A stretch of DNA of 64,000 nt from the NCBI GenBank assembly GCA_963813815.1, contig CAWFAD010000012.1, forward strand, positions 58,142-122,141, read 5' to 3'. Origin of the DNA: an uncultured bacterium (GTDB lineage: Bacteria > Krumholzibacteriota > Krumholzibacteriia > Krumholzibacteriales > Krumholzibacteriaceae). The notes below the pieces were generated by a model, which did no database searches, had not been told where the DNA came from, and saw nothing but the letters and a program-made list of their open reading frames with translations. The first letter of the stretch is position 1, and each line of letters opens with the position of its first letter. Both the position numbers and the translations under genes were made by a program. Shown piece by piece: positions 2,486-58,018 of this stretch.

Positions 2486-3097
2486 TCAGCGAATTATATC
2501 CCCGATGCGCGAGAAACGGATCCAGTGCTTCCCGTAATCCAGAGAAAAATAGATGAAAAGCGCCTTGCCGCGCAGAAGCTTCCGGTTCACGGGGCCCCAG
2601 TAGCGGCTGTCGGAGCTGTTGTCTCGATTGTCGCCGAAAACGAGGATGTGATCCTCCGGCACGGTGTACGGACCGAAGGTGGGACGCTCGACGTCCCCAT
2701 AGAGGTATTTCACGTACTTCTCTTGCTTCTCCACGCCGTCGACGAAGAGACGGCTGTCGCGAAACTCAACCGTCTGTCCGGCGACCGCGACGCAGCGCTT
2801 GATGTAGTCGGTTTTGCCGTCGCCGGGCCATTTGAAGATCACGATGTCCCCCGCACGAGGATCGCGCACCGCCGGCAGGAAAAGGTCCACGAAGGGCACC
2901 TTGGCCCCGTAGAGAAACTTGTTCGCGAAGAGAAAGTCCCCCTTGAGGAGCGTGTCCTCCATGGATTCGGAGGGAATGTGATAGCTCTGGATGATGAGGG
3001 CGCGCACGATGAGGGCGAGGATGACGGCCGTCGCGACTATCTCGACATACTCGCGCAGCTTCGATTTCGGTTTCTTGTCCTTGGTATCGGACTTCAT
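2486..3097 (-). CDS. lepB: Signal peptidase I
   Basis: The 203 aa ORF has an N-terminal TM helix, a SESMEDTL box with the catalytic Ser, a KRCVAVAGQ box with the catalytic Lys, and the GDNRDNSSDSRYWG box. Confidence 0.85.
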   Translation of the reverse strand: MKSDTKDKKPKSKLREYVEIVATAVILALIVRALIIQSYHIPSESMEDTLLKGDFLFANKFLYGAKVPFVDLFLPAVRDPRAGDIVIFKWPGDGKTDYIKRCVAVAGQTVEFRDSRLFVDGVEKQEKYVKYLYGDVERPTFGPYTVPEDHILVFGDNRDNSSDSRYWGPVNRKLLRGKALFIYFSLDYGKHWIRFSRIGDIIR

Positions 3098-3243: not shown

Positions 3244-3987
3244 TCAGTAACGCAGGACGATCTGCAGTCCCACGCGGTCGGCGGAGGCCGCCGGGGCGAC
3301 CTGGAAACGCATATCGTCGAGATGCGCGTCGACGTAGGCGTCGATCACGATCACGAGCACGGCGGCCGCCGACCACCAGATCCAATCCACGGAGCGGTCC
3401 CAGTACTCCGTCACCCACGAATCGTGAAATCGCCATTCGCTCGAGCTCACCGGATAGGTGTCGCGCACCGCTTTCTCGCGGCTCCAGAGACGCCGATTCT
3501 GATAGATCATGAGCGTGTAAAAGGTTTCGACGCCCATACCGATCGCCGCTTTGAGCGGCTTCTCGTTGTACATCTGGCCGAGCCCCGGGAAGGTGAGCGC
3601 GCAGAGCATGGCGACCCGCCCGCTGCGTCTCTGCCGATACTCCTTGCCCGCGAACCCCGCCGTCTCGCCCCCGAGGATCGATTTGAGCTCGTCCATCGTC
3701 CAAACGCCGCCCTCGGGAGGCGCGAACGCCGTATCCGGCCGCGCGGCGCGGACGGAATCGGAGCCGCTCGCCGACGCCGTGTCCTCCGGAGCGACCCACG
3801 CCGTATCCGCAACCGGCGAGGCGGCCGAATCCGCGGCGGCCCGGACGGCGTCGGCCGGAACCGCGGCGATCGATCCCTCAGGCCACAGCGGGCCGCCGGC
3901 CGCCACAGGGTTCGCGGCCGCGAGGACGCCGAGCATCGCCAGCGCGACGGCTATGGTTTTCCCGTAAAATGCAGGTTTCAGAGGCAT
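3244..3987 (-). CDS. Hypothetical secreted/membrane protein (signal peptide, two predicted TM helices, Trp-rich C-terminal region)
   Basis: Reading from the internal Met MPLKPAFYGKTIAVALAMLGVLAAANPVAAG gives a signal peptide. Hydrophobic segments follow at LCALTFPGLGQMY and WIWWSAAAVLVIVIDAYV. The upstream part of the long ORF (3244..4245) overlaps the tRNA and is unlikely to be coding. I did not recognise a catalytic family. Confidence 0.45.
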   Translation of the reverse strand: MPLKPAFYGKTIAVALAMLGVLAAANPVAAGGPLWPEGSIAAVPADAVRAAADSAASPVADTAWVAPEDTASASGSDSVRAARPDTAFAPPEGGVWTMDELKSILGGETAGFAGKEYRQRRSGRVAMLCALTFPGLGQMYNEKPLKAAIGMGVETFYTLMIYQNRRLWSREKAVRDTYPVSSSEWRFHDSWVTEYWDRSVDWIWWSAAAVLVIVIDAYVDAHLDDMRFQVAPAASADRVGLQIVLRY

Positions 3988-3996: not shown

Positions 3997-4094
3997 TGGC
4001 GGGAATGTGTGGGAATCGAACCCACCCCGGATGGTTTTAGCACCCGGCGGAAGGATTTGAAGTCCTCGAGGTCCACCAGAACCCATCCATTCCC
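3997..4094 (-). tRNA. selC: tRNA-Sec (anticodon UCA), selC
   Basis: The minus-strand sequence is GGGAATGGATGGGTTCTGGTGGACCTCGAGGACTTCAAATCCTTCCGCCGGGTGCTAAAACCATCCGGGGTGGGTTCGATTCCCACACATTCCCGCCA. The anticodon loop CTTCAAATC matches E. coli selC, with UCA reading UGA. It has a long variable arm, a 7 bp acceptor stem GGGAATG/CATTCCC and a T-loop GGTTCGATTCC. It is 98 nt, longer than a canonical tRNA. Confidence 0.7.
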
Positions 4095-4135: not shown

Positions 4136-4558
4136 TCACCGTCCGATGCGCGCGATCGCTTCGATCTCCACGAGCGCGCCGAGCGGGAGCCGTCCCACCT
4201 GGTACGTGGCCCGCGCCGGAGGAGCCTCGCCGAAGAAGGTCGCATAGACCTCGTTCAGAACTGCGAAATCGTCCATCGACTGGAGCAGCACCGTCGTCTT
4301 CACGACCGCGGCCATCGTCGTCCCGGCGGCCTCGCAGATCGCGGCGACATTTTTGAGCGCCCGCCGCGCCTCGGCCTCGATCCCTCCGTCGACGAGCTTC
4401 TTCGTCTCCGGATCGATCCCGAGCTGCCCCGATACGAAGAGAAATTCCCCCGCGAGGATGCCCTGACTGTACGGTCCGATGGCGGCGGGGGCCGCCTTCG
4501 TGCGGATCACCTGTTTCACCGTGCCTCCTCCGAGAACGGTCGTCGCACCGAAGATCAC
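4136..4558 (-). CDS. ridA: RidA/YjgF family reactive enamine-imine deaminase
   Basis: The C-terminal 127 aa of the long ORF (VKQVIRTKAAPAAIGPYSQGI ... ARATYQVGRLPLGALVEIEAIA) is a typical RidA. The likely start is the GTG at 4558, overlapping the glmS stop as GTGA, or the GTG of VKQ near 4519. The 5' part of ORF 4136..6115 is an out-of-frame overlap with glmS and was rejected. Confidence 0.7.
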   Translation of the reverse strand: MIFGATTVLGGGTVKQVIRTKAAPAAIGPYSQGILAGEFLFVSGQLGIDPETKKLVDGGIEAEARRALKNVAAICEAAGTTMAAVVKTTVLLQSMDDFAVLNEVYATFFGEAPPARATYQVGRLPLGALVEIEAIARIGR

Positions 4559-6387
4559 TCGACCGTGACGCTTTTCGCGAGGTTGCGGGGTTGATCGACG
4601 TTGCACCCCCGCAGCACCGCGATGTGGTACGCCAGCAACTGCAGCGGAATCACCGAGAGAATCGGATAGAGGAAGTCGAGCGTGCGCGGAATGTAGATCA
4701 CGTGATCCGCCATCTCGACGACCTCGGTGTTCCCTTCGTTCGTGATCGCGATGATCCTGCCCTTGCGCGCCTTTACCTCGGCAATGTTGCCGACGATCTT
4801 CTGGTACGCCGCGTCGCGCGGGCAGATGAACACGACCGGCATGTTCTCGTCGATGAGGGCGATCGGGCCGTGCTTCATCTCCGCCGCGGGATACCCCTCG
4901 GCGTGCACGTAGGAGATTTCCTTGAGCTTGAGCGCTCCCTCGAGGGCGACCGGATAGTTGGCGCCGCGGCCGAGATAGAGGAAATTGTTGTGCTGAGCGA
5001 GCTGCTCGGCGATGCCGCGGATCGACTCGCTCGTATCGAGAATGGAGGCGACCTGCCCGGGGACCGCCTGAATCGCCTTCACGATTTTCTGGCCCTCGGC
5101 CTCGGAGATCGTGCGCAGGCGGCCGAAGATGAGCGCGATGAGGCTCAACACCGTGATCTGGGAGGTAAAGGCCTTCGTCGACGCGACGCCGATCTCCGGA
5201 CCCGCGTGAATGTAGACGCCCGCGTGCGACTCGCGGGCGATCGTGCTGCCGACGACGTTGCAGATGCCGAGGCAGCGCGCCCCGCGCCGCCCGGCCTCTC
5301 GGAGCGCCGCGAGCGTGTCGACCGTCTCTCCGGACTGGCTGATCGCGAAGACGATCGTGCCGTCCTCGATGACGGGATTGCGGTAGCGGAACTCGCTCGC
5401 GTACTCGACCTCGACGGGAATGCGCGCCTTCTCCTCGATCATGTACTCGCCGATGAGCCCCGCGTGCCAGCTCGTGCCGCACCCGATGAGCAGGATGCGC
5501 TTCACGTTCCGGAGCTCCTCCTCCGTCATGTTGAGACCGCCGAGATGCGCCTCCCCCGTCGCCGCGATGAGGCGCCCGCGCATGGCGTTCGTGATCGTTT
5601 CCGGCTGCTCGCGAATCTCCTTGATCATGAAGTGCGGATGGCCGCCGCGCTCGATCATATCGAGATCCCAGTCGATTTTCTGGACGTCGTGGCTCACGTA
5701 TTCGTTCTGGACCGTCATGGTTGTGAAGCCGTCGCGGGTCGCCACGATCATTTCGTGATCCTCGAGATAGATCACCTGGCGCGTGTGCTTGAGGATCGCC
5801 GCGACGTCGCTCGCGATGATGTACTCGCTCTCGCCGATGCCCATGACAACGGGCGAGCCGTTGCGGGCCGCGACGAGCTTGTCCGGCTCGCTCGCCGACA
5901 CGACGAGGATGCCGTACGTTCCCTCGACCTTCTCGAGCGCCTTCCGCACGGCGACCTCGAGATCGCAGCCGGTGTAGTACTTCTCGATGAGGTGCACGAG
6001 CGTTTCCGTATCCGTCTCCGTGACGAACCGGTGATTCTCCGCGATGAGGGATTTCTTGAGCGTCGAGTAGTTCTCGATGATGCCGTTGTGAATGAGCGCG
6101 ATCCGGCCGCTGCAATCGAAATGCGGATGGGCGTTCGTGCGGTTCGGCTCGCCGTGCGTGGCCCAGCGGGTATGCGCTATGCCCACGCTGCCCGAGAGAT
6201 CCATTCCCCGGAGCTTCTCCTCGAGCTGGCTGATCTTACCCGCCGTTTTCTCGTACACGAGCCCGCCGTCGCGCGCGATCGCGATCCCGGCGGAGTCGTA
6301 TCCCCGGTACTCGAGCCGCTTGAGCCCCTCGATGAGAATCGCGCCGACGTTCTTGCTCTTTCCGATGTACCCGATAATTCCGCACAT
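4555..6387 (-). CDS. glmS: Glutamine--fructose-6-phosphate aminotransferase (isomerising)
   Basis: The protein begins MCGIIGYIG with the Cys1 nucleophile. It has the N-terminal Ntn amidotransferase domain and two SIS domains, and ends with the conserved KSVTVE. It is 610 aa from the internal Met. Confidence 0.95.
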   Translation of the reverse strand: MCGIIGYIGKSKNVGAILIEGLKRLEYRGYDSAGIAIARDGGLVYEKTAGKISQLEEKLRGMDLSGSVGIAHTRWATHGEPNRTNAHPHFDCSGRIALIHNGIIENYSTLKKSLIAENHRFVTETDTETLVHLIEKYYTGCDLEVAVRKALEKVEGTYGILVVSASEPDKLVAARNGSPVVMGIGESEYIIASDVAAILKHTRQVIYLEDHEMIVATRDGFTTMTVQNEYVSHDVQKIDWDLDMIERGGHPHFMIKEIREQPETITNAMRGRLIAATGEAHLGGLNMTEEELRNVKRILLIGCGTSWHAGLIGEYMIEEKARIPVEVEYASEFRYRNPVIEDGTIVFAISQSGETVDTLAALREAGRRGARCLGICNVVGSTIARESHAGVYIHAGPEIGVASTKAFTSQITVLSLIALIFGRLRTISEAEGQKIVKAIQAVPGQVASILDTSESIRGIAEQLAQHNNFLYLGRGANYPVALEGALKLKEISYVHAEGYPAAEMKHGPIALIDENMPVVFICPRDAAYQKIVGNIAEVKARKGRIIAITNEGNTEVVEMADHVIYIPRTLDFLYPILSVIPLQLLAYHIAVLRGCNVDQPRNLAKSVTVE

Positions 6388-6460: not shown

Positions 6461-7801
6461 TCACGACAGAAGCTTTCCCGCTTCCCTCGCGAGCCGCTCC
6501 GCCTCCTCGGCGGATGCCGCCTCCGCGATGACCCTCACCACGGGCTCCGTATTCGACCTGCGCAGATGTATCCACCCCATGGGCATATCAATTCTTATAC
6601 CATCCGACGCGCAGGCCTCTCCCGGGAAACGCTTTTCCGCTTCTTTTTTCACCCGCTCGAAATCGCCGGCGAACGAGAACTTGTCCTTGACGATGTGGTA
6701 GCGCGGGTAGGAGGCGACCTTGTCGGCGAGCGAGACTCCCTCCTCCGCCAGCGCCTGCAGCGCGAGGGCGGCTCCGAGCATCGCGTCGCGGCCGTAGTGG
6801 AGGGGCGGATAGATGACCCCACCGTTCCCCTCGCCCCCGATCGCCGCGCTCCGCTCCTTCATGAGGGCGATGACGTTCGCCTCCCCCACTTTCGACCGAA
6901 ACACGGGAACGCCGTGCCGCTTTCCCAGATCGTCGATGATGCGCGAGGTCGAGAGGTTCGCGACGAGCGGTCCCTTTTCCCTCGAGAGCACGAAATCCGC
7001 CGCCACGGCGAGCGTGAGCTCCTCGCTGCACACAAACCCCGTCCCGTCGACGAGCACGAGGCGGTCGGCGTCCGGATCGCACGCGAAGCCGATGTCGGCC
7101 CGCTCGCGAACGACCGCGCGAGACAGATCGACGAGGTTCGCCGGACGCGGCTCGGGCTCGTGTGGGAACGGCTCATCGACGCTCGTGAAGAGCTCCACGA
7201 CCGTGACGCCGAGCTCCCGGAGCAACGCCGGCAGGATGACGCTCCCCGCGCCGTTCACGCAGTCGACCACGGCCTTGAAACCCCGCTTCGCGACGCGATC
7301 GCGGTCCATGCGTCCGAGCGCGAGAATCCGCCCCACGTGGACGGCGTTTCCCGCCTCGTTCGCCGCATACCCGCCGAAGGACCGCCTCGCCTCGTACACC
7401 GGCGACGCCGCGGCGGAGGTCAGGTCGTCCATCTCCGCGGCCGAGAGAAACTCCCCGCGGCGGTCCAGAAACTTGAGCGCGTTCCACTCGATGCCGTTGT
7501 GGCTCGCCGTGATGATGATCCCGCCCTCGGCCTTGAGCTCGTCGACCATGATCTCGACGGTCGGGGTCGACGCGATGCCCAGATCGACGGCCGAGCATCC
7601 CTCGAAGCGCAGCGCCGAAAACACCGCCGAGGCGAGCGCCGGACCGGAGGGACGGGTGTCCCGCCCCACGACGACGACGCCGCCGCGGAGCCGCGCGGCG
7701 AATGCGGCCGCGTAGCGCAGCGCCGTCCCGGGGTTCATTCCGGGCCCCACGATCCCCCGCACGCCCGAGACGCCGGCCATGAGATTCGGATTCTGAGCCA
7801 T
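6461..7801 (-). CDS. glmM: Alpha-D-phosphohexomutase family enzyme, probably phosphoglucosamine mutase
   Basis: It has a GVSGVRG active-site loop, a TASHNG phosphoserine loop and four-domain phosphohexomutase architecture. It lies directly upstream of glmS. The motif deviates from canonical GlmM (TASHNP), so the substrate assignment is tentative. The start could be at 7822 or 7801. Confidence 0.6.
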   Translation of the reverse strand: MAQNPNLMAGVSGVRGIVGPGMNPGTALRYAAAFAARLRGGVVVVGRDTRPSGPALASAVFSALRFEGCSAVDLGIASTPTVEIMVDELKAEGGIIITASHNGIEWNALKFLDRRGEFLSAAEMDDLTSAAASPVYEARRSFGGYAANEAGNAVHVGRILALGRMDRDRVAKRGFKAVVDCVNGAGSVILPALLRELGVTVVELFTSVDEPFPHEPEPRPANLVDLSRAVVRERADIGFACDPDADRLVLVDGTGFVCSEELTLAVAADFVLSREKGPLVANLSTSRIIDDLGKRHGVPVFRSKVGEANVIALMKERSAAIGGEGNGGVIYPPLHYGRDAMLGAALALQALAEEGVSLADKVASYPRYHIVKDKFSFAGDFERVKKEAEKRFPGEACASDGIRIDMPMGWIHLRRSNTEPVVRVIAEAASAEEAERLAREAGKLLS

Positions 7802-7935
7802 CGACACGCTCCGTCCCGCCACCGCGCCCGCGGCGCCGGGCGGTTTGCATTATACGACAGCCGCCGCCGAGCCGCATAAGAAAAATCCCGGCCGCCGGGC
7901 GGCCGGGACGATTCGCGGACCCTTCGCGGCGGAGC

Positions 7936-8481
7936 CTATTCCCGCACTTCGGCGTACGCGCGCATGAACGATTTGAGGTTTCGCGGCCCGACGCGCCCAA
8001 AACGCTTCGTGAGGGGTTCCTCGATCGATTCGGGCTTGATGACGCCCGTCATCTTGACCGCCGCGCCGAGCATCGTCGTGTTCGTAATGGGGCGCCCGAG
8101 CTCCTCGACCGCGATTTTCGTCGCGTCGACCGTTGCGACCCGGATATCGGCGTAGCCGAACTGTTTCTTGATCTCCTCGGGGCTCTTCGCCGTGTTGACG
8201 ACGAGAACGCCGCCGGATTTCAGGCCCTTTCGGGGATTCGCGATCCGGAGGAGGCTCTGGTCGAGCACGATGACGACGTCCGGTTCGTTCACGGCGAACC
8301 GGGTCCGGAGAGGCGCATCGTCGACGCGGGAGAACGCGACGACCGGCGCGCCGCGCCGCTCCGGCCCGAAGCTCGGAAAGCTCTGCGCGTATCTGCCCTC
8401 GTTGATGACGGCGACGGCGAGCAACTCGGCGCTCGTCACCGCTCCCTGTCCGCCGCGTCCGTGAAATCTGATCTCCAGCAT
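7936..8481 (-). CDS. porG: 2-oxoacid:ferredoxin oxidoreductase gamma subunit
   Basis: The 181 aa protein begins MLEIRFHGRGGQGAVTSAELLA, which includes the GRGGQG motif of OFOR gamma subunits. It is the last gene of the porDAB-nuoEF-fdx-porG string. Confidence 0.8.
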   Translation of the reverse strand: MLEIRFHGRGGQGAVTSAELLAVAVINEGRYAQSFPSFGPERRGAPVVAFSRVDDAPLRTRFAVNEPDVVIVLDQSLLRIANPRKGLKSGGVLVVNTAKSPEEIKKQFGYADIRVATVDATKIAVEELGRPITNTTMLGAAVKMTGVIKPESIEEPLTKRFGRVGPRNLKSFMRAYAEVRE

Positions 8482-8488
8482 GTTCGTC

Positions 8489-9214
8489 CTACTTTTTTGT
8501 CGAACGGCAATCGACGCACGTGTCGAAATGATCTTCCGGAAGGTTCGCGATCTTCCGGAAATACTCGAGCTGTTTCACCGGGGCGAAATGCTTTCCGCAG
8601 ACCTTGCATGCGGCCATCGGAAAATCCGTCTTCCAGATGCGCCGCACACCGTCGCGCTCCTCCATCGGAATGACGCCCACCGGACAGATATAGTGGCACG
8701 AGCCGCACGCGATGCAATCCTCCGGCGCCTCCTCGAACGGCGTCGCGACGGCGCGCGTGTCGCCGCGGCTCTTGAATCCGATCGCCGATACCCCCACGAC
8801 CTCCCGGCAGACGCGAACGCACTGGCCGCAGAGGATGCACCCCTTGAAGTCGACCGGGAACATGCTCTTCTCGATCCCGAGGCTCGAGGCGAGCTCGCGG
8901 AGGCGCGGATGCGTCGAGTTCCGCGAGAGGAGCAGGTGCAGAACGAGCCGCCGCACGTTCAGAACGCGCTCGGTCGAGGTATTCACCTCGAGCCCCTCGG
9001 CCACCTCGTGGATGCACGAAACGACGAGGCGCTGGCGCTTCTTGTGCGTAACCTCGACCATGCAGAGCCGGCAGGCGCCGTACGGATGGAGCTCCTCGTT
9101 GCTGCAGAGGTTGGGGATGTCGATGTTGGCGTCGCGCGCGGCGTCGAGAATCGTCGTCCCCGCCGCGGCCGTCACCCGCCGTCCGTCGATCGTCAGTGTC
9201 ACCTTGTCCGCCAT
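8489..9214 (-). CDS. [2Fe-2S] plus 2x[4Fe-4S] ferredoxin-like protein, like the N-terminus of NuoG or HydA without a catalytic domain
   Basis: Reading from the internal Met MADKVTLTIDGRRVTAAAGTTILDAARDANIDIPNLC ... CRLCMVEV gives a 2Fe-2S ferredoxin fold. Two CxxCxxCxxxCP motifs follow, giving 241 aa. The upstream extension of the ORF was rejected because it overlaps nuoF in another frame. Confidence 0.75.
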   Translation of the reverse strand: MADKVTLTIDGRRVTAAAGTTILDAARDANIDIPNLCSNEELHPYGACRLCMVEVTHKKRQRLVVSCIHEVAEGLEVNTSTERVLNVRRLVLHLLLSRNSTHPRLRELASSLGIEKSMFPVDFKGCILCGQCVRVCREVVGVSAIGFKSRGDTRAVATPFEEAPEDCIACGSCHYICPVGVIPMEERDGVRRIWKTDFPMAACKVCGKHFAPVKQLEYFRKIANLPEDHFDTCVDCRSTKK

Positions 9215-9258
9215 GTCGGTTCCTTTGCCGGGGGCGGCGCGTCCCCGCGCCGCCATCG

Positions 9259-11109
9259 CTACGAAATGAGTATCGCGTCGAACTTGCAGGCCTCGAAACA
9301 GGCCCCGCACTTGATACACGTTTTCTGATCGATCGTATGAGCCTTTTTCTTCTCCCCCGTTGCCGCCTTCGTCGGGCATACTCGCGCGCACGCCGTGCAT
9401 CCGGTGCAGGCGTCCGCCGCGACCGTGAAGGCGATGAGCTCCTTGCAGACGCCGGCCGGGCACTTCCGGTCGCGGATATGCGCGAGGTACTCGTCCTTGA
9501 AATGCTTGATGGTGCTCAGCACGGGGAACGGCGCCGTGCCCCCGAGGGCGCAGAGCGAGCCGTCGATGACCCCCTTGCCGATCCATTCGAGCAGATCGAT
9601 ATCGCTCTCCACTCCCTTGCCCGCGCAGATCCGGTCGAGAATGGCGCGCATCTGGTAGACGCCCTCGCGGCACGGCGTGCACTTGCCGCAAGACTCCTGC
9701 TCGAGAAACTTGAGGAAATACCTGGCGACGTCCACCATGCAGGTGCGATCGTCCATGACGATCATGCCGCCCGAGCCCATCATCGAGCCCACCTTCGAGA
9801 GCTCGTCGAAATCGACCGGCATGTCGAGATGCTGCTCGGGGATGCAGCCGCCCGAGGGACCGCCCGTTTGTATCGCCTTGAACTTCCGGCCCTTCGGGAT
9901 GCCGCCGCCGATGCCGAACACGATCTCGCGGAGGGTGATTCCCATGGGGACCTCAACGAGACCGGTGTTGTTGATCTTGCCGACGAGCGAGAAGATCTTC
10001 GTTCCCGTGCTCCCCGCGGTGCCGATCGAGGCGTACCAGTCGGCGCCCTTGCTGATGATCGGCGGCACGTTCGCCCACGTTTCGACGTTGTTGAGGCAGG
10101 TCGGTTTGTCGTAGAGGCCCCGGTCGGTGGCGTGCACGTACTTCTGACGCGGCTCGCCGGCCCGCCCTTCGATCGAGGCGAAGAGCGCGGAGGATTCGCC
10201 GCAGACGAAGGCGCCGCCGCCGCGGTTGATCTTGATATCGAAGCTGAAATCCGTTCCGAGGATCCTTTCGCCGAGCAGCCCGTACGCGCGGGCGTTCTCG
10301 ATCGCAGAGGTGATGTTCGTCACGGCGAGCGGATACTCGTTGCGCACGTAGATGTACCCGTTGCTCGAGCCGATCGCGAAGGCGCCGATGATCATCCCCT
10401 CGAGCACGCTGTGCGGATTGCCCTCGAGGAGGCTTCGATCCATGTAGGCGCCCGGATCCCCCTCGTCGGCGTTGCAGATGACGTACTTCGGCTCGCCCTC
10501 CGCCTTGGCGGTCGATTCCCATTTCCAGCCCGTCATGAAGCCGCCGCCGCCCCGTCCGCGAAGCTTCGCCCTCGTCACCTCGTTGATGATGTCCCCGGGC
10601 TTCATCGCGAGCGCCTTGGCGAGCGCCGCGTAGCCTCCGATGGCGACGTAGTCGTCGATGCTCCGCGGATCGATCTGCCCGTTCATGCCGAAGATAAGCC
10701 GCATCTGCTTCCGGTAGAAGGGAACGTCGTGCTCGTGGAGGATTTTCTCCTTCGTCACCGGATCGCGGTACACGAGGCGGTCGATGATTTCGTCCTTGAG
10801 CACCGATTTCTCGATGATCTCGCCCGCGTCCTCGGTTTTCACGTGCTGGTAGAATATCTTCTTCGGCTGGATCACGACAAGCGGTCCGCGCTCGCAGAAT
10901 CCGTGACAGCCGCTCGTGCGAATCTCGACCTTGTTTCCGAGCCCGCGCTTCTCGATCTCCGCGCGGAAGTTGTCGATGAGCTTCTGCGTACCGTACGCGA
11001 GGCATCCCGTGCCGGCGCATATCACGATGGTCGGCTTTCTCGGGTCGCGCGCGGACGCGAGCTTCTGCTGGAGCGTCGCGAGCTCTTTCGCCGATTTAAG
11101 CTTCTTCAT
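9259..11109 (-). CDS. nuoF: NADH-binding flavoprotein of the NuoF/HydB/HndC type (FMN, NAD(H), [4Fe-4S]) with an N-terminal thioredoxin-like [2Fe-2S] domain and a C-terminal 2x[4Fe-4S] domain
   Basis: The 616 aa protein has a GRGGGGF glycine-rich loop, the ESCGKCTPCREG 4Fe-4S motif, and C-terminal CTGCTAC ... CIKCGAC ferredoxin motifs. Confidence 0.85.
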   Translation of the reverse strand: MKKLKSAKELATLQQKLASARDPRKPTIVICAGTGCLAYGTQKLIDNFRAEIEKRGLGNKVEIRTSGCHGFCERGPLVVIQPKKIFYQHVKTEDAGEIIEKSVLKDEIIDRLVYRDPVTKEKILHEHDVPFYRKQMRLIFGMNGQIDPRSIDDYVAIGGYAALAKALAMKPGDIINEVTRAKLRGRGGGGFMTGWKWESTAKAEGEPKYVICNADEGDPGAYMDRSLLEGNPHSVLEGMIIGAFAIGSSNGYIYVRNEYPLAVTNITSAIENARAYGLLGERILGTDFSFDIKINRGGGAFVCGESSALFASIEGRAGEPRQKYVHATDRGLYDKPTCLNNVETWANVPPIISKGADWYASIGTAGSTGTKIFSLVGKINNTGLVEVPMGITLREIVFGIGGGIPKGRKFKAIQTGGPSGGCIPEQHLDMPVDFDELSKVGSMMGSGGMIVMDDRTCMVDVARYFLKFLEQESCGKCTPCREGVYQMRAILDRICAGKGVESDIDLLEWIGKGVIDGSLCALGGTAPFPVLSTIKHFKDEYLAHIRDRKCPAGVCKELIAFTVAADACTGCTACARVCPTKAATGEKKKAHTIDQKTCIKCGACFEACKFDAILIS

Positions 11110-11605
11110 CGGTTTCTACCTTTTTCCCGAGGGCGGCGAGCACCTTGTTCGTCTTGGCGATCGTGATTTGGCCGTGATACTCGTCGTTCACGACGAGTAT
11201 GGGGCCGAGCGCACAGGCGCCGAGGCAGTTCACCGTCTCAAAGCTGAACTCTCGATCGCTCGTCGTTTCGCCCGAAGCGATGCCGAGCGTGCGTGCGATG
11301 TGGTCAGCGATCTGCGGGGCCCCGCGAACGTGGCACGCCGTTCCGAGACAGAGGCTCAGGCGGTAGCGGCCTTTCGGCGCGAGACTGAACGCGCGGTAGA
11401 AGGTCGCGAGGTGGTACACGAGACTCCGCGTCACGCCGAGACTCTCGACGAGAGCGTCGAGCGCCTCTCTCGGGAGGTAATTGAACTCCCGCTGGATATC
11501 CTGCATGATGGGGATCACGAAGCTCTTGTCGCGCCCGTACCGCGCGACGATCTCGTCGACCTTCGCTCCCACGGCATCGTTTCGTTTCGATCGGCTCGCT
11601 TCCAT
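11096..11605 (-). CDS. nuoE: NuoE/HydC-type [2Fe-2S] thioredoxin-like ferredoxin subunit
   Basis: The 169 aa protein has the CLGTACH ... CLGACALGP cysteine pattern of 24 kDa NuoE-like subunits. It overlaps the nuoF start by 14 nt. Confidence 0.85.
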   Translation of the reverse strand: MEASRSKRNDAVGAKVDEIVARYGRDKSFVIPIMQDIQREFNYLPREALDALVESLGVTRSLVYHLATFYRAFSLAPKGRYRLSLCLGTACHVRGAPQIADHIARTLGIASGETTSDREFSFETVNCLGACALGPILVVNDEYHGQITIAKTNKVLAALGKKVETDEEA

Positions 11606-11654
11606 GGCTCGCTCTTTCCTGAGGTCGTCCTCTCTGCATCGACTCCCGCGCGCG

Positions 11655-12578
11655 CTAGAGCTCGGCTCTCGCGCGGAGCTTCTCCCATTCCCCCGTGACG
11701 CGACTCTGTATCTTCTCGATGAGCTCGGGCGTCAGATGGCGGAACCGCCCCTGAGGCTTGAGGTAGTCCGCGACCGGCCGCAGCGCGGGAACGTCGACCG
11801 TGATTCGGTACCGCCCCTTCTCGACTTCGTAGAGCGGGAACACACCCGTCTCGACGGCCAGCCGCCCGATCCAGATCGCCTTTTCGCTCGGAAGCCCCCA
11901 TCCCGTCGGACACACGGAGAGTATATGAATGTAGGCGGGGCCGCCGGCCTTCGCCGCCTTCTCGACCTTCTTCATGAGATCGAAGGGGTAGCTCGAGCAC
12001 GCCGTCGCGACGTAGGGGATGCCGTGCGCGGCCGCGATCTCCGGCATGTTCTTCTTCCACGTGACCTGCCCGGCCTTTATCTTGCCCGCCGGCGAGGTGG
12101 TCGTCGAGGCGCCGAACGGCGTTCCCGAGGATCGCTGCACGCCGGTGTTCATGTAGGCCTCGTTGTCGTAGCAGACATAGATGAAGCGATGCCCTCGCTC
12201 GAATGCGCCCGAAAGCGCCTGCAACCCGATGTCGCTCGTTGCGCCGTCGCCGCCCATGCCGAGGAAGATCGTCCCCTTCTCGGGGATCGCGCCCTTGCGC
12301 ACGAGCGCGCGGTAGGCGCCCTCGGCCCCCGTCGCGACCGCCGCGGCGTTTTCGAACGCGACGTGAATCCAGGGCACTCGCCAGTTGGTGAAGGGGAACG
12401 GCGAGGAGATGATCTCCATGCACCCCGTGGCCGAAGCGACGACGACGTTCTGCCCGAGCGCCTTTGCGACGAGCCGGACGGCGAGCGCTTCCGCGCACCC
12501 CTGACAGGCGCGATGTCCCGGGGCGAAGTACTCGCGCTTCGTGACGAGCCTCGAGGCGTATACGTTGAGCGATTCCAT
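11655..12578 (-). CDS. porB: Pyruvate/2-oxoacid:ferredoxin oxidoreductase beta subunit (TPP-binding)
   Basis: The 307 aa protein has the CQGCAE cysteine motif and the TPP-binding GDG ... NE region. Confidence 0.85.
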
Positions 12579-13762
12579 TACTCTCTCACCCCGTAGAAGA
12601 TATAATCTTCCTGCCGGATCGGCGCGCCGGAAGCGACGAGCTCCTCCGTTTTCGCGTACATCTTGATGAAGTCTTCCGGCGTAACGTCGCGGCCGGCGAA
12701 TCCCGCGAGGAAATTGGTGATCGCCGGCTTCTGCTTCTGCTCATAGAGCGCCGCGCGGATCTCGCTCGCCACCGGCCCGCCGGGACCGCCGTACGATATC
12801 GCCCGGTCGATAACGATGAGCTTTTTCACGCCCTTCACCGCGTCGCGGAGCTCGTCGAACGGAAACGGGCGCCAGAGGCGAAGCCGTATCTGCCCGACCG
12901 GCTTTCCCTGCTCGCGAAGGCGGTCGACCGCGATCGACGCGGTCTCCCCGAAGCTTCCCATCGTGACGATCGCCGTCTCGGCTCCGTCCATCTTGTAGGT
13001 TTCAACCGACTTGTACGCGCGACCGGTGATCTTCGCGATCTCGTCCCACGCCTTCATGATGACCGGCCTCGCGGCGAGGAGCGCCGCGTCCTGCGCCTTT
13101 TTCGTTTCGGCAAAAATGTTCGGAATGCCGAAGGCGCCCAGCGTGACGGGAGCGTCGGGAGTGAGCACGTTGACCGGTTTGAAGGGAGGAAGGTAACGCG
13201 CGGCCTGCTCCTTGTCCCAGTACTCGATGGCCTCGATGACGTGCGTCACGATGAACCCGTCGATGTTGATCATGACCGGTATCGAGACCGCCGGATCTTC
13301 GGCGACGCGAAAGGCGTAGAGCACGTGGTCGAAGAGCTCCTGCCCGTTGTCGGCGAACACCTGTATCCAGCCGCAGTCGCGCACCGACATCACGTCGGTG
13401 TGATCGTTCCAGATGCTCAGGGGTCCCGAAAGCGAGCGGTTCGCGAGGATCATCACGATCGGGAGCCGCAGGCTCGCCGCGATGAACACGATCTCGTTCA
13501 TGAGGGCGAGCCCCTGCGCGCTCGTGCAGGTGAAGGTGCGCGCCCCCATCGCGGAGGAGCCGCAGCACACGCTCATCGCCGAATGTTCCGATTCGACCGG
13601 TATGAACTCGGCGTCGAGCTCTCCCTCGGCGACGAGCTCGGCGAGGTGCTCGACGATGTGCGTCTGCGGGGTGATCGGATACGCCGCGACGACGTCGACG
13701 TTCGCCAGGGCGACCGCCTCCGCCGCGGCGATCGAGTTTTCGATTCCGACGCGTTTCGGCAT
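12578..13762 (-). CDS. porA: Pyruvate/2-oxoacid:ferredoxin oxidoreductase alpha subunit
   Basis: The 394 aa protein begins [34 protein letters not shown] and has the typical POR alpha domains I and III. Confidence 0.85.
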
Positions 13763-14068
13763 TTATTCCTCCGCCTCCTCCGCCATCGAGATGCAGCCCG
13801 TGATGCATTCCTGCGCGCAGATGCCGCAACCCTTGCAGTAGTAGAGGTCGGCCTCGAAGTAGCCTTCCTCATTCTTGCGGACCGCCGCGTCGGGACAGAA
13901 GAGGTAACAGACGCCGCACTTGACGCAGCGGGAATGATCCCACAGGGGCCGGATGGAGCGCCAGTCGCCGGTCCTATACTGCGCGGCGTTGCCGGCGTCG
14001 GAGACCGCGCAGCCGATCTCGATGTCTTTCCACCCGAGTTCTTCTTCCGATTTGACCGGCTTTTTCAT
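13763..14068 (-). CDS. porD: Pyruvate/2-oxoacid:ferredoxin oxidoreductase delta subunit (2x[4Fe-4S] ferredoxin)
   Basis: The 101 aa protein has two CxxCxxCxxxCP motifs (CVKCGVCYLFCP and CKGCGICAQEC). It is first in the cluster. Confidence 0.8.
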   Translation of the reverse strand: MKKPVKSEEELGWKDIEIGCAVSDAGNAAQYRTGDWRSIRPLWDHSRCVKCGVCYLFCPDAAVRKNEEGYFEADLYYCKGCGICAQECITGCISMAEEAEE

Positions 14069-16439: not shown

Positions 16440-18934
16440 ATGCCGAAAAAGAGCGCATTACGCCTTCCGCTCGCGGCCGCGATCCGGCCCTGCGCCGCCG
16501 TCGCCGCTCTGGCCATCGCCGCCGCGCCGGGGCCGCTTTTCGCCGTGGGCCACGCGCGGGATATCCGTTTCACGCAGATCTCCATCGAACAGGGGCTCTC
16601 GCAGAGCATCGTCGAGTGCATCATCCAGGACCGGCGCGGATTCATATGGATGGCCACCGAGGACGGGCTCAACAAGTTCGACGGGTACGATTTCACGATT
16701 CTCCGCCACGATCCCGACGATCCGAACAGCCTCGTCTACAACCAGCTCCTCTCCCTCTGCGAGGACCGCGACGGCCGCATATGGATCGGAACGTTCCAGG
16801 GCGGCCTCAACCGCTACGATCCCGCGACGAGGCGCTTTACCCTCTACACGCACGCGATCGGCGATTCCACGAGCATCAGCCACAATTCGATAAACGCGAT
16901 CGTCGATACGAAGGCCGGGGACCTCTGGATCGGCACCGATAACGGGCTCAACCGCTACGAGCGCCGAACGGATTCCTTCACCCGCTTTTACGGCGACTCG
17001 ACCGGCGAGAACGGACCCGGCCACAGCGGAATCCGCTGCATCCTCGAGGATCGCGGCGGCGGGGTCTGGATCGGCACGAACGGCGGCGGCCTCAGCCGTT
17101 ACGACCCGGCGAGCGGCCGATGGAGGCGCTACGCGCACGATCCCGGCGATCCCGGAAGCCTCAGCCACAACACGGTGCGCGCGATCCGCGAGGACCATGA
17201 GGGCGCGCTCTGGGTCGGCACCGTCGGCGGCGGACTCAACCGGCTCGACCGCCGGACGGATCGCTTCACCCGCTACCGGCACGACCAGGACGATCCGAAG
17301 AGTCTCGCTCACGATCAGGTGTTCGATATCCTCGAGGACCGCACAGGCGCCCTTTGGATCGGCACCAACGGCGGAGGGCTCGACCTCTTCGATCGCGAGA
17401 CCGGCGGTTTCATTCACTATCGGAACGATCCGAACGATCCGAACAGCTTGAGCTTCGACGAGATTCACGACATCTTCGAGGATCGATCGGGGATTCTGTG
17501 GCTCGGCACCTACGGGGGCGGGGCGAACAAGTTCGACACGAAGCGAAAGAGCTTCGTTCTCTACCGCCCGAATCCGGCGGATCCGGCGAGCGGGCTCAGC
17601 GCCGAGATCGTGTGGTCGATCAGCGAGGACGAGCGGGGAATCCTGTGGATCGGCACGCACGGAGGCGGGCTCAACCGCCTCGACCGCGCAACCGGGCGCT
17701 ACCGGCACTACCGCCACGATCCGGGCGATCCAACGAGCCTGAGCTCCGACATTGTGCGGATCGTGTACCGGGACCGTTCCGGAGCCTTCTGGATCGGCAC
17801 GCACGGAGGCGGCCTCTGCAGGTTCGACCGCTCGAGCGGCCGCTTCACCGCCTATCGTCACGACCCATCCGATCCGTCGAGCCTGAGCCATGACGAGATC
17901 AGATCGATATACGAGGATCGGCAGGGCGCGCTCTGGCTCGGCACGAACGGCGGCGGTCTCAACCGCATGGACCGCGCGACCGGCGTTTTCCGCCGCTACC
18001 GGTCCGATCCCAATGATTCAACGAGCCTCAGCAACGATTTCGTGCGCGCGATCTACGAGGACGACTCGGGGGGCTTCTGGATCGGCACGCAGGGGGGAGG
18101 GCTCAACCGCCTCGACCGCTCGACGGGCGTATTCACGCCGTTCCGGGCGAACCGGCTCGACGCGGGCGGCATCAGCAACGATTACATCTTCTCCATCTTC
18201 GAGGATTCGCGGCGAGGTATGTGGATCGCCACCTGGGGCGGCGGGTTCAACAGGTTCGACCGGCAGACGGGGACCTTCAGGCACTATACGATGAAGGACG
18301 GCCTCCCCAACAACTCCGTCTACGGCATGCTCGAGGACGAGGACGGCAACCTCTGGCTCAGCACGAACCGCGGGATATCGAGATTCGACCCACGGACGGA
18401 AACCTTCAAGAACTACACCGACGAGGACGGGCTCCAGAGCAACGAGTTCAACGGAGGGGCGTTCTTCAAGAGCCCCGCCGGGGAGATGTTCTTCGGCGGG
18501 ATCCACGGCTTCAACTCTTTCTTTCCGGGGGACATCAGGGACAATTCCTTCATCCCTCCCGTCATCATCACCTCGCTCTCGGTGCTGAACCGGCCGGCGG
18601 AGCTCGACACGCCGATCACGGATATTCATACGCTCCGGCTCTCGTATCGCGATTACCTTTTTTCGTTCGAGTTCGCCGCGCTCGATTTCACGGCGCCGGA
18701 CAAGAATCAATACGCCTACCTGATGGAGGGCCTCGATCGCGATTGGATAGCGACCCCCGCGGGAAGGCGCCACGCGAGCTACACGACCCTGCCCCCGGCC
18801 GCTACGTCTTCAAGGTGAAGGGCTCGAACAACGACGGCGTATGGAACGAGACGCCCGCGACGATATCGATCGTCATCACGCCTCCCTACTGGCGAACGCT
18901 CTGGTTTCGAAAAATGATATACTTTTTTTGCTGA
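16440..18934 (+). pseudogene. Sensor protein with two-component-regulator propeller repeats, Y_Y_Y domain and TM helix. It is frameshifted near 18795, and the reading frame ends inside a foreign low-GC insertion
   Basis: From the internal Met MPKKSALRL there is a signal peptide. More than 12 repeats of the LWIGTxxGGLNRxDRxTGxFxxYRHDPxDPxSL unit follow. At a C5G homopolymer the frame of ORF 16305..18818 moves into ORF 18221..18934. That second frame carries the Y_Y_Y segment GRYVFKVKGSNNDGVWNE and a TM helix ITPPYWRTLWF. Confidence 0.6.
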
Positions 18935-19585
18935 AAGGCTGGCGCCGTTGTACCTGTACCTTCGGTACCATGTCGAATGTGGCATGCTGTTGGCCGGTTA
19001 CAGTGCTTCAAATTCAATGATGATTCATACCACGATCATCAGACATGACCGCGCTGCATAGCCTAGCCACACGTGGTCTGCAGCGGCGTAAGGTCACGCG
19101 AATCAAAAGCACAAAAAATGTGCAACTTTTAGCATCCAGAGGTTTGGATATTTCCACAGTACATAATTGAGGGGATCATCTTCATGCACCACTCTTGGCA
19201 GCCGCAAGGTCATCCCGGGTGGTATCACGCTGCAGTGTGGTACTTATATGATATTACTTTTTTTTGGCTGAAAGGCTGGCGCCGTTGTACCCCTGTACCC
19301 TTTCAGGTACCATGTCCGAATGTGGCATGCTGTTGGCCCGGTTAACCAGTGCTTCAAATTCAATGATGATTCATACCACGATCATCAGACATGACCGCGC
19401 TGCATAGCCTAGCCACACGTGGTGCTGCAGCGGCGTAAGGTCACGCGAATCAACTGCACAAAAAATGTGCAACTTTTGCAGCACCAGAGGTTTGGATATT
19501 TGAGTATAATTAATATTAGAATTAGATATTTTATATTTATATTTATAATTATATTTATCTATTTAATATATTTTTTTTTTTTATA
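18914..19585. repeat. Low-GC (about 40-45%) insertion containing an imperfect tandem duplication of a roughly 250 bp unit, plus an AT-rich low-complexity tail
   Basis: Unit 1 is about 18914..19155 and unit 2 about 19248..19504. Both begin ATGATAT(T)ACTTTTTTTGCTGAAAGGCTGGCGCCGTTGTACC and end GGTTTGGATATTT. They differ by scattered 1-2 nt indels. Each unit has a short hairpin GCACAAAAAATGTGC. The tail at 19505..19585 is TATAATTAATATTAGAATTAGATATTTTATATTTATATTTATAATTATATTTATCTATTTAATATATTTTTTTTTTTT. The flanking DNA is about 68% GC. Confidence 0.6.
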
Positions 19586-20394
19586 CCTCGCCGCCGGCTT
19601 CATGGTCGCCGGGGTCGCGACCGTCTTTTACCGTCGCCGGCTCACCGGCGTCCGGCTCGCCGCCGAGCTCAGGGCGGCGCACAAGGCGCAGATGTCGATC
19701 ATGCCCCAGTCGGATCCGGCGATCGAGGGGTTCGAAATCTCCGGAACCTGCATCCCCGCCTACGAGGTCGGAGGCGATTTCTACGATTACTTCTGGCTCG
19801 GGAAGGATCGCCGCCGCTTCGGCATCGCCGTCGGCGACGTCGCGGGGAAGGCCATGAACGCCGCGATGATATCGGTCATGTCGAGCGGCATGCTCTCCTC
19901 GAAGGTCGATAACGCCGTTTCGGTCGCCGGCCTCATGCGCGACCTCAACGGGCCGCTCTTCAACAAGACCGACGATTACGTGTTCACGGCGCTCTGTCTT
20001 CTCTCGCTCGACGCCGGAGCGAAATCTGGCGTCTTACAGCGTCGCCGGATTCAACAACCCCATTCTCAAATCCCGCGCGGGCGTGCGTTCGCTCCCCGGA
20101 CGGGGACCGCAGTTCCCCCTCGGGAGCCTCGAGAACATCGCCTACGAGGAGACGGCCCTGCGGCTCGAACGTGGAGACGTTCTCCTTGTGTTTTCGGACG
20201 GACTCATCGAGGAGCGGAACAAGGCGGGCGAATTCTTCGGCCTCGAGCGCCTGCGCGCGCTTCTCGAGACCCTCGACACGGCGGGCATGACGGCGCGCGG
20301 GATCAAGGAGTCGATCGTCTCGGAGGTGCTCGCCTTCGCCGGAAAGCGGCGCCATGACGACGACATCACGCTCGTCGTCGTGAAGGCCGCCTAA
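19586..20394 (+). pseudogene. PP2C-family (SpoIIE/RsbU-like) Ser/Thr phosphatase domain. The 5' end is truncated by the insertion and there is a +1 frameshift near 20030. It is probably the C-terminal part of the upstream sensor gene
   Basis: Frame of ORF 19419..20357 reads LAAGFMVAGVATVFYRRRL (a TM helix) then AELRAAHKAQMSIMPQSD ... GGDFYDYFWL ... GIAVGDVAGKAMNAAM. It then shifts into ORF 20083..20394, which reads SYSVAGFNNPILKSRAGVRSLPGRG ... VLLVFSDGLIEERN ... DDITLVVVKAA. Confidence 0.6.
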
Positions 20395-21158
20395 GACGCT
20401 TTCTTGATCGCGCGGACGATGACGCTTTCGGCGGGGCTCCGCGGAGCCCCCTGAAACGGATACGGAACCTCTTCGATCACCCGGACATCCTCGAATCCCG
20501 CCCCGCGGATGAGCGCGAGATAATCGTTCTTGAGCGACGCGTTCGCGATGCAGCCGACGAGAAGCTCTTCGGATTCGCGCAGCTCCTCCGGCAGTGGCTC
20601 GAGAAGAACGATATCGGAGACGACGAGACGTCCGCCGGGCCGGAGCACCCGCAGCGCTTCGTCGAAAACCCGCGCCTTGTCCGGCGAAAGATTCACGACG
20701 CAGTTCGAGATGACGATATCGACCGAGGCGTCCGCCGCGGGCAGGTTCTCGATCTCCCCGAGCCTGAACTCGACGTTGTCGAGGCGGCCGTCCGACGCCG
20801 CGCGACGGGCCCGGTCGATCATTTCGGGTGTCATATCGACGCCGATGACGCGGCCCGACGGACCCACCGCCTTCGCGGCTATGAAGCAGTCGAGCCCCGG
20901 CCCCGAGCCGAGGTCGAGGACGGTCTCCCCCTTCCGTGGCTTCGCGTGCGCGATCGGGTTGCCGCAGGAGAGACCGGCGATGGGGACTCCGGGCGCGCCC
21001 GCGAGATCCCCCGCCGCGTACCCCATCCCCTCGAAGAACGACTCCGCCGACTCGTTCCCTCCGCAGCACGAGCTACCGCCCGGCCTGCACGAGCAGGAGG
21101 TGCGGGCTATTTTCGCGTACCCTTCCCGAACCGTCTTTCTCATCCGATCCTTTTCCAT
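20391..21158 (-). CDS. arsM: Arsenite S-adenosylmethionine methyltransferase
   Basis: The 255 aa protein has VREGYAKIA, the conserved Cys residues (CSC ... CC ... GCG), the SAM-binding LDLGSGPGLDCFIAAKAVG motif and RLVVSDIVL. Confidence 0.8.
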   Translation of the reverse strand: MEKDRMRKTVREGYAKIARTSCSCRPGGSSCCGGNESAESFFEGMGYAAGDLAGAPGVPIAGLSCGNPIAHAKPRKGETVLDLGSGPGLDCFIAAKAVGPSGRVIGVDMTPEMIDRARRAASDGRLDNVEFRLGEIENLPAADASVDIVISNCVVNLSPDKARVFDEALRVLRPGGRLVVSDIVLLEPLPEELRESEELLVGCIANASLKNDYLALIRGAGFEDVRVIEEVPYPFQGAPRSPAESVIVRAIKKAS

Positions 21159-21198
21159 AGCGCCTCCTTGACGCCCCGCCGTGCGGCGCGCCGCCCGA

Positions 21199-21579
21199 CT
21201 ATGCGCCGCAACCGTGACCGTGTCCGTGGTGCCCGCACGAGTTGTCCGCGGTGAGCTCCTCGAGCGCTCCCCTCTTCAACGCCTCGACGTTGTCGCGGAC
21301 CGTGCCGGGCATCGAGCGGTACACGCGAATCCCCGCGTCGTTCAGCCGCTCGACCGCCCGCGCGCCGATCCCGCCAACGATGATCGCTTCGACATTCGCG
21401 CCTTCGAGCCCCTGCAGCGGCCGGCACGCGCCGTGGGCGTGGTGCTGGTCGCCGTTATCGACGACGCGCGACTCGCCGGAATCTCCGTCGACGATCAGGA
21501 ACCGCTCGGCCGAGCCGAAATGCCCGTAGGGCTCCCCTTCCATGCCGCGCACGTCGTTCACCGGAATGCAGATCCGCAT
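21199..21579 (-). CDS. Dinitrogenase FeMo-cofactor-binding domain protein (NifX/NafY/NifB-C-terminal-like) with a His/Cys-rich C-terminal tail
   Basis: The 126 aa protein reads MRICIPVNDVRG ... HFGSAERFLIVD ... AIIVGGIGARAVERLNDAGIRVY, matching the Nitro_FeMo-Co family. The C-terminus is CGHHGHGHGCGA. Confidence 0.7.
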   Translation of the reverse strand: MRICIPVNDVRGMEGEPYGHFGSAERFLIVDGDSGESRVVDNGDQHHAHGACRPLQGLEGANVEAIIVGGIGARAVERLNDAGIRVYRSMPGTVRDNVEALKRGALEELTADNSCGHHGHGHGCGA

Positions 21580-21589
21580 CGTGTTTCTC

Positions 21590-21967
21590 CTATTCGTTTT
21601 TGCCGAGGTCCAGCATTTCCTTCATCATGGGGCCGAGCATCGCTCGCACGCCGCCGGCGAGGCTCTCGGCCTTGACGAGCGTGAGGCAGCACGTCTTTCC
21701 GCGCCCCCCGCGCCCACCGTGCCCGCCGTGGAAGATGATGGCGAGCTTTTCCCCCGCGCCGATTCCGGCGCGCTCCCGCACGTCCTTCGGCAGGACGACT
21801 TGGCCGCGCTCGTCGACCGACACGACGGCCTCTATCCGGCAGCAGCCCCCGAGGGCTCCCCGGCCACCCCCGCGCATCCCTCTCTGCCCGCAGCAGCCGT
21901 CCCCGCCGATTCCAGATCGCTTTCCGCTCACGTAGCCTCCTTCATGTTCGGCGCACACGGACGCCAT
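21590..21967 (-). CDS. Small Cys/Gly-rich protein with a SpoVT/AbrB-like (MazE-like swapped-hairpin) DNA-binding segment. It may be a metal(loid)-responsive regulator
   Basis: The segment EAVVSVDERGQVVLPKDVRERAGIGAGEKLAIIF resembles AbrB/MazE domains. It is flanked by CC pairs (DGCCGQ, GGCCR, TCCL). The start is uncertain and may be the internal Met near 21877. The high-GC low-complexity N-terminus lowers confidence. Confidence 0.35.
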   Translation of the reverse strand: MASVCAEHEGGYVSGKRSGIGGDGCCGQRGMRGGGRGALGGCCRIEAVVSVDERGQVVLPKDVRERAGIGAGEKLAIIFHGGHGGRGGRGKTCCLTLVKAESLAGGVRAMLGPMMKEMLDLGKNE

Positions 21968-25382: not shown

Positions 25383-25415
25383 AAAACGGCAGCCCATTCA
25401 CTGGGCTGCCGTTTT
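25383..25415. terminator. Bidirectional rho-independent terminator hairpin between the convergent T9SS cargo gene and the kinase gene
   Basis: AAAACGGCAGCCC-attcact-GGGCTGCCGTTTT is a perfect 13 bp stem flanked by A and T runs. It overlaps the last codons of the kinase at 25398. Confidence 0.5.
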
Positions 25416-27773: not shown

Positions 27774-27809
27774 TTCGCTTGTCCCGCGGCAGAGTGATCG
27801 ATCGCCCTT

Positions 27810-30236: not shown

Positions 30237-30247
30237 TCCAAGCGCCT

Positions 30248-35809: not shown

Positions 35810-35827
35810 GCGAAGCTCCTGTTTCCG

Positions 35828-36652: not shown

Positions 36653-36654
36653 CG

Positions 36655-37921: not shown

Positions 37922-38132
37922 CCGTTATAGCGAAATCAGGACACCTGAGCTCGCACAGGTTGCACTTGATGCAGTCATCGGGTCGTGCAACCTTGACCTT
38001 GCCGCCCTCCATCTCGAGGACGGCCTTGGGGCAAAAGGCCACGCAGATCTCGCACCCCTTGCACCACTTCAGGTTGACCTTTATTATCGCTTTCTTTTTT
38101 TCTGCAGCCTGGCTCTCGGCCACCCCGACCAC
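37914..38132 (-). CDS. 2-oxoacid:ferredoxin oxidoreductase delta subunit (2x[4Fe-4S] ferredoxin, cluster 2)
   Basis: The 72 aa protein, with a GTG start, has CKGCEICVAFCP and CIKCNLCELRCP motifs. Confidence 0.75.
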   Translation of the reverse strand: MVGVAESQAAEKKKAIIKVNLKWCKGCEICVAFCPKAVLEMEGGKVKVARPDDCIKCNLCELRCPDFAITVE

Positions 38133-53553: not shown

Positions 53554-53600
53554 GGCTTGTGTCCCGGGCGGCCCCGGAGGGGGGCCTCCTTCGCGCGGCG

Positions 53601-57940: not shown

Positions 57941-58018
<78 letters not shown>

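Follow-up and report, generated by a model that had tools for sequence, protein, structure and literature searches.

A conserved tRNA-Sec gene with a non-Watson–Crick eighth acceptor pair in Krumholzibacteriota

The minus strand of the 64-kb stretch of DNA analysed here (the window) carries, at positions 3997..4094, a 98-nt selenocysteine tRNA gene (selC) with the anticodon UCA and the sequence GGGAAUGGAUGGGUUCUGGUGGACCUCGAGGACUUCAAAUCCUUCCGCCGGGUGCUAAAACCAUCCGGGGUGGGUUCGAUUCCCACACAUUCCCGCCA. The identification is fully supported by two independent detectors. ARAGORN returned a tRNA-SeC with the anticodon tca at position 35, and Rfam cmscan matched 4094..4001 to the tRNA-Sec family RF01852 across the full model (1-91) with 71.3 bits, against a gathering threshold of 47, and an E-value of 1.4e-12; in the competition within clan CL00001, RF01852 prevailed over the generic tRNA family RF00005. 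A sequence-only reading of this DNA had placed a 98-nt tRNA-Sec at these coordinates, without naming the strand, and had suggested checking it with ARAGORN and a covariance model. Both tools reproduce the coordinates and length exactly, the covariance models did not score the gene as a tRNA-Ser or a pseudo-tRNA, and the anticodon loop, long variable arm and E. coli selC-like signature described in that reading are all correct. As such, selC is an ordinary, well-understood element of an already known kind, detectable by standard tools. What is mildly new is limited to a clade-wide non-Watson–Crick eighth acceptor pair and the lost selD–selC linkage relative to a sister lineage. We consider it very probable that the gene is functional and would serve a canonical selenocysteine (Sec) pathway whose partner genes lie elsewhere in the genome. 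The gene is built from the following parts.

3997..4094, minus strand: selC, tRNA-Sec(UCA), including the encoded 3′ CCA (ARAGORN; RF01852; 24 Krumholzibacteriota loci)
4087..4094, minus strand: 5′ strand of the acceptor stem, tRNA positions 1-8; positions 1-7 are paired and G8 stands opposite A87
4069..4084, minus strand: D arm, positions 11-26, a 6-bp stem with the 4-nt loop UGGU (pair counts)
4051..4067, minus strand: anticodon arm, positions 28-44, a 5-bp stem with the loop CUUCAAA (Rfam; pair counts)
4058..4060, minus strand: anticodon UCA, which reads UGA (sequence, ARAGORN, Rfam; invariant in 25/25 aligned sequences)
4027..4047, minus strand: long variable arm, positions 48-68, a 7-bp stem with a 7-nt loop (pair counts)
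4009..4025, minus strand: T arm, positions 70-86, a 5-bp stem with the loop UUCGAUU (Rfam, alignment, pair counts; invariant)
4001..4008, minus strand: 3′ strand of the acceptor stem, positions 87-94 (pair counts)
3997..4000, minus strand: discriminator G (4000) and encoded CCA (3999..3997) (sequence; invariant in the alignment)

This architecture agrees with RF01852 and E. coli selC in the UCA anticodon held within the 7-nt loop CUUCAAA, the GGACUUCAAAUCC signature, the 5-bp T stem, the 6-bp D stem with its 4-nt loop, the long variable arm, the acceptor strands of 8 nt each, and the discriminator G73 followed by CCA. A 6-bp D stem closed by a 4-nt loop is a hallmark of tRNA-Sec, and a long variable arm is an identity element for SerRS. 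The anticodon stem comprises 5 pairs and an unpaired C27, whereas that of E. coli tRNA-Sec has 6 bp; in no sequence of the alignment described below does C27 pair, the base opposite it at position 45 being C, U or A.

Unlike E. coli selC, the window gene lies between ridA and a gene encoding a DUF5683 protein, not beside sel genes. It belongs to a string of genes on the same strand that runs glmM-glmS-ridA-selC-DUF5683-lepB and continues with hrcA, grpE and dnaK.

6464..7780, minus strand: glmM (same-strand string)
4558..6387, minus strand: glmS, the syntenic anchor for finding relatives (Pfam SIS and GATase domains)
4139..4558, minus strand: ridA, Rid-family deaminase (Pfam PF01042; TIGR00004)
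3247..3987, minus strand: DUF5683 protein with a signal-peptide-like N-terminus (Pfam PF18935; translation)
2489..3097, minus strand: lepB (same-strand string)

The ridA stop codon is separated from selC by 41 nt, and the encoded CCA from the probable DUF5683 ATG by 9 nt. Upstream of glmM, at 7909..7885, there is a strong terminator-like hairpin. The interval between ridA and selC has no such site, nor does the sequence immediately following selC, and the sole minus-strand site of this kind inside the string near selC is a weak, 5-pair one within ridA (4458..4446). No sigma-70 promoter was detected for selC; the lineage may use other promoter types. Given the 41-nt and 9-nt spacing and the lack of an intervening terminator, selC is probably co-transcribed with the glmM–lepB string, from which the tRNA would be excised by RNase P and 3′ processing. 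The gene context shows no sign of an island integrated at selC.

The nearest relatives of the window GlmS are metagenome-assembled genomes (MAGs) labelled Candidatus Krumholzibacteriota or Krumholzibacteriia, with UBP1_UBA4783 at 94% identity and many others at 74-88%; the T9SS sorting domain and DUF5683 present in the window, both FCB-group hallmarks, fit this placement. The glmS gene of the closest relative, UBA4783 (locus L025, 10001..11769), gives two separate alignment segments, covering residues 1-133 and 195-610, a split which suggests a gap or indel in the MAG assembly. In 24 relatives, with GlmS proteins 74-94% identical to that of the window, ARAGORN detected a 98-nt tRNA-SeC at the corresponding place after glmS-ridA. 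The selC alignment (A1, 25 sequences) has a mean column identity of 96%, with an invariant anticodon, D loop and T loop.

Minimum free energy (MFE) folding of the tRNA alone did not reproduce the cloverleaf; as such failure is usual for tRNAs, we relied on covariation for the structure. The 8/5-type cloverleaf that was evaluated against the alignment consists of 8-nt acceptor strands, a 6-bp D stem with a 4-nt loop, and anticodon, variable and T stems of 5, 7 and 5 bp. Its pairs are formed in 96.3% of cells, five of them show changes of both partners, and 19 additional pair types are seen; these values were equalled in 0/500 shuffles, and registers shifted by 1-3 columns gave pairing of only 38-60%. 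Acceptor pairs 1-7 are standard throughout (100%), with pair 6:89 varying among U-A, U-G and C-G. The D stem is paired in 100% of cells with both-sided changes in 3 of its 6 pairs, and the variable-arm stem in 98.6% with both-sided changes in two pairs.

Across Krumholzibacteriota, selC copies share 92-100% identity with that of the window, whereas glmS DNA is 65-83% identical in the same comparisons, and the 60 nt directly downstream of selC are 39-63% identical, mostly near 45%. The conservation of selC while glmS and the downstream DNA diverge, together with the compensatory changes in its stems, argues that selC is a functional RNA gene under purifying selection, neither a relic nor a chance match. 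Frameshift errors elsewhere in the assembly might recommend an assembly artefact as the source of the signal; this possibility, and with it that of a chance hairpin, is effectively excluded by the RF01852 E-value of 1.4e-12 and by the identical or near-identical sequence in 24 independent assemblies.

At its eighth position, the acceptor stem departs from that of E. coli selC, with a conserved purine–purine opposition in place of a Watson–Crick pair. Pair 8:87 (window 4087/4008) is G.A in 19/19 distinct Krumholzibacteriota sequences and is never standard; in the sister lineage introduced below it is A.G in locus L022 and C.A in L083, L084 and L085. The 8+5 spacing of the acceptor and T branch is kept. 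Because 8:87 is G.A, the branch holds only 12 Watson–Crick pairs, with a 1x1 mismatch at the junction. In E. coli tRNA-Sec, base pairs 8-10 of the acceptor/T branch form the antideterminant for EF-Tu, and the non-Watson–Crick pair 8 could be a putative EF-Tu antideterminant.

Some bacteria that use Sec have tRNA-Sec variants in which the acceptor/T branch is 12 bp long, and these genes often adjoin selA, selB or selD; departures from the 13-bp rule include 7/5 Cloacimonetes-type and bulged forms (PMC5330540). In light of these documented departures, we treat the mismatch as a clade-specific variant inside the known variation of bacterial tRNA-Sec. The window gene resembles the 12-bp variants in its 12 Watson–Crick pairs, in G73 and CCA, and in belonging to an FCB-group lineage; it differs from them in its 1x1 mismatch and in keeping the 2-nt linker to the D stem. 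Unlike the Cloacimonetes-type 7/5 and bulged variants (Epsilonproteobacteria, Clostridiales, Gammaproteobacteria; PMC5330540), its strands are neither shortened nor bulged.

The G.A opposition and the resulting count of 12 Watson–Crick pairs could also be read as marks of a tRNA-Ser-like or allo-tRNA-type molecule (8/4 or 9/3 cloverleaf) bearing a UCA anticodon, or of a pseudo-tRNA, and tRNAs with unusual cloverleaves do surface in searches for selC (PMC5389517). We regard this as extremely unlikely: the tRNA-Sec model is the best in the Rfam tRNA clan, with 71.3 bits; the T stem has 5 bp, not 4 or 3, and the D stem has 6 bp with a 4-nt loop; 12-bp tRNA-Sec variants are on record from Sec-using bacteria (PMC5330540); and a sister ortholog that itself has a non-Watson–Crick 8:87 adjoins a Sec-containing selD.

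This sister lineage was encountered in locus L022, which is labelled Eisenbacteria and whose GlmS is 68% identical to the window GlmS. The locus of this lineage shares with the window the backbone glmM-glmS-ridA-...-selC-DUF5683-lepB-hrcA-grpE, and its tRNA is orthologous to the window selC at 79-83% identity. Every SelD homolog traced to a contig revealed the order glmM-glmS-ridA-selD-selC-DUF5683-lepA-lepB-...-hrcA-grpE (L083, L084, L086-L090). Three genes are inserted after selD in L090, yet selC still adjoins DUF5683; this adjacency is kept in both phyla, including sister loci L083-L090. The two loci differ in selD, which occupies the gap between ridA and selC in all sister contigs examined, and in lepA, which follows DUF5683; both genes are absent from these places in the window and in 24/24 Krumholzibacteriota loci. 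The glmS-to-selC gap is correspondingly 439-641 nt in Krumholzibacteriota versus about 1.6 kb in the sister lineage. Sister-lineage loci have tRNA-Phe(GAA) and tRNA-Thr(CGU) side by side upstream of glmM, with 50-70 nt between them (L022, L083, L084, L086-L090). In the window, the genes for these two tRNAs, both ordinary and 76 nt long, occupy 41007..41082 and 57941..58016 (minus strand; ARAGORN, Rfam); they are separated by 17 kb and lie 33-50 kb from glmM, which indicates that the region has been rearranged.

The L022 SelD (about 7421..8473), directly upstream of selC, is 40% identical to E. coli SelD (E 1e-64); where the E. coli protein has Cys17, the L022 frame reads TGA (VACAG-TGA-ASKLGP). 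The Sec form of SelD occurs in L022, L084 (9880..10945) and L085, and the Cys form in L083 (10001..11059); by these sequences, the sister-lineage SelD presents a classical Sec/Cys pair. A search for homologs of the L022 SelD gave its best 120 matches without lineage labels; of those traced to contigs, 6/6 were of the sister-lineage type and stood in a glmS-ridA-selD-selC context. From the ridA-selD-selC arrangement of the sister lineage, with its Sec/Cys SelD, we infer that the ancestral locus common to both lineages was a working Sec locus; in Krumholzibacteriota, selD and lepA are gone from it.

The co-occurrence of selC and selB is the signature of the Sec-decoding trait (PMC1273633). Neither selA, selB nor selD was found in the 64-kb window, by Pfam on essentially all called genes and by tblastn with the E. 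coli proteins, and tblastn found none of them in the Krumholzibacteriota loci up to 10 kb from glmS. When E. coli SelA, SelB and SelD were compared by tblastn with the window and 80 loci, the only real match was the SelD of L022; an apparent SelB match in L022 is LepA, and an apparent SelD match in locus L019 is ThiL. Our literature search found no paper linking Krumholzibacteriota, or the Eisenbacteria-labelled sister phylum, with selenocysteine.

No window ORF pair had appeared in the sequence-only reading to be split by a Sec-type TGA, and an explicit scan had been recommended there. Three scans of the window now bear this out: i) TGAs with 50 open, coding-type codons on each side, ii) extensions past TGA stops together with upstream segments, for every called gene under a self-trained codon model, and iii) all of the 1,527 TGAs, read in six frames with flanks of 20 codons. 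No credible in-frame Sec-UGA was found in the window; the cases that arose are boundaries of complete genes or frameshift artefacts. In addition, tblastn of the coding-type ORFs of the window and its relatives against all loci, within 10 kb of glmS, gave no TGA aligned to Cys.

Among the individual candidates, the TGA at 35828..35830 is the stop of a 2-oxoacid:ferredoxin oxidoreductase beta subunit at a KorB–KorC boundary, with an SD-like GGAG and the gamma-subunit ATG six codons on. The TGA at 58827..58829 lies between a response regulator (RR) and a PAS/HisKA kinase (HK), which are two separate genes, and the same-frame neighbours GrpE/DnaK and LTXXQ/OEP are likewise separate genes, not Sec-split. 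The six-frame scan yielded five weak matches, four antisense to solid genes and one at the RR/HK boundary. An ArsM-like methyltransferase (20394..21158) passed the ordinary ArsM model and scored far below the selenoprotein 'exception' models. This arsenite-methyltransferase-family gene, a non-Sec form, adjoins NifX/NifB-C-terminal-like (Nitro_FeMo-Co) and AbrB/MazE-like genes (20394..21967, minus strand).

The Hdr/MvhD/GltD-type proteins to which the sequence-only reading had drawn attention are indeed encoded on the minus strand, at 46.6-55.3 kb. Their genes, like those of the accompanying NuoE-, NuoF- and SoxA-like proteins, are uninterrupted ORFs encoding non-Sec forms and lie in a larger cluster.

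45492..55331, minus strand: redox cluster, all Cys forms (NuoF-like, NuoE-like, HdrB/C-like CCG protein)

This cluster also encodes a 1,027-aa fusion of a NuoG N-terminus (2Fe-2S / 4Fe-4S), GltD and MvhD, a SoxA-like 2Fe-2S/FAD/BFD flavoprotein, and a frameshifted SoxB/DAO-like protein; we regard its products as a candidate electron-bifurcating complex, possibly an amine or opine-type dehydrogenase. At the end of the N-terminal piece of the DAO-family oxidoreductase, the TGA at 46202..46204 gives the look of a split selenoprotein, which we rejected because the pieces are in different frames, with two +/-1 shifts at G runs, so that the TGA is not in frame; the protein as a whole is in pieces in three frames, joined at G runs.

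At least three window genes contain +/-1 frameshifts: this oxidoreductase (45492..46690, minus strand; two shifts at G runs), a KorA-like POR alpha subunit (36658..37924, minus strand), with POR_N and PFOR_II in different frames, and a large Reg_prop/Y_Y_Y/SpoIIE phosphatase (16440..20391, plus strand) spread over three or more frames. Homopolymer indel errors are typical of long reads, and the pattern points to such assembly errors or to pseudogenes; the frameshifts thereby generate false signals of in-frame TGAs.

Other features of the window are recorded here in their own right. A 2-oxoacid:ferredoxin oxidoreductase operon at 7939..14068 (minus strand) is interrupted by a flavoprotein module, the order of transcription being por-delta, alpha and beta, then NuoE-like, NuoF-like and HoxU/NuoG-N-terminus-like genes, then por-gamma; the operon may couple 2-oxoacid oxidation to NAD(H). 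Two more clusters for this enzyme family are arranged divergently, at 35264..37924 (minus strand) and 38342..40967 (plus strand), which makes three in 64 kb. Three tandem paralogous Ser/Thr kinase genes at 25401..33121 (minus strand) have near-identical N-termini (MIG..ISHYRILSKLGEGGMGVVYR); TPR repeats were identified by Pfam in the kinase at 25401..27773, the only one of the three scanned.

A further explanation to be weighed is that selC is an orphan: selD, and perhaps selA and selB, would have been lost, and the tRNA would either be a decaying relic or be kept for another role, such as a Ser-charged UGA suppressor or a non-translational function. The absence of selD between ridA and selC in 24/24 Krumholzibacteriota loci, set against its presence in the sister lineage, speaks in favour, as do the lack of sel or selenoprotein genes in the window and the flanks examined and the lack of a literature report of Sec use in Krumholzibacteriota. 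However, sel genes are scattered in most bacteria, so that their absence from 64 kb says little. A relic would be expected to decay, whereas selC has retained 92-100% identity and acquired compensatory changes while its neighbours diverged, and it keeps all the tRNA-Sec hallmarks (UCA, the 6-bp D stem with its 4-nt loop, the long variable arm and G73). As for suppression, 33/53 called genes end in TGA, and general suppression of UGA would therefore be harmful. The strong purifying selection apparent in the alignments thus disfavours an orphan selC, to which we assign a small probability. Krumholzibacteriota keep a strongly conserved tRNA-Sec(UCA) despite the apparent excision of selD; should SelA, SelB and SelD be missing from these genomes, selC would be an orphan throughout the phylum, a scenario that we think quite improbable and that, if true, would mean either that the tRNA acts independently of Sec or that the Sec pathway is non-canonical.

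Taken together, the evidence favours a functional selC that serves the canonical Sec pathway. By analogy with that pathway, SerRS would charge the tRNA with serine, the long variable arm and G73 acting as identity elements; SelA would turn the serine into selenocysteine, using selenophosphate made by SelD; and SelB would bring the charged tRNA to UGA codons with a SECIS hairpin downstream. While the identity of the tRNA, its structure and its conservation under selection are observed directly, we infer that it is charged, that SelA, SelB and SelD are encoded elsewhere in the genome, and that selenoproteins are actually used. The proposal made in the sequence-only reading, that selC implies selenoprotein use, is reasonable and fits the strong purifying selection. 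The presence of selC makes it likely that this uncultured FCB-group bacterium, and apparently Krumholzibacteriota as a phylum, uses the 21st amino acid; annotators of Krumholzibacteriota genomes should therefore expect some UGA codons to signify Sec rather than stop.
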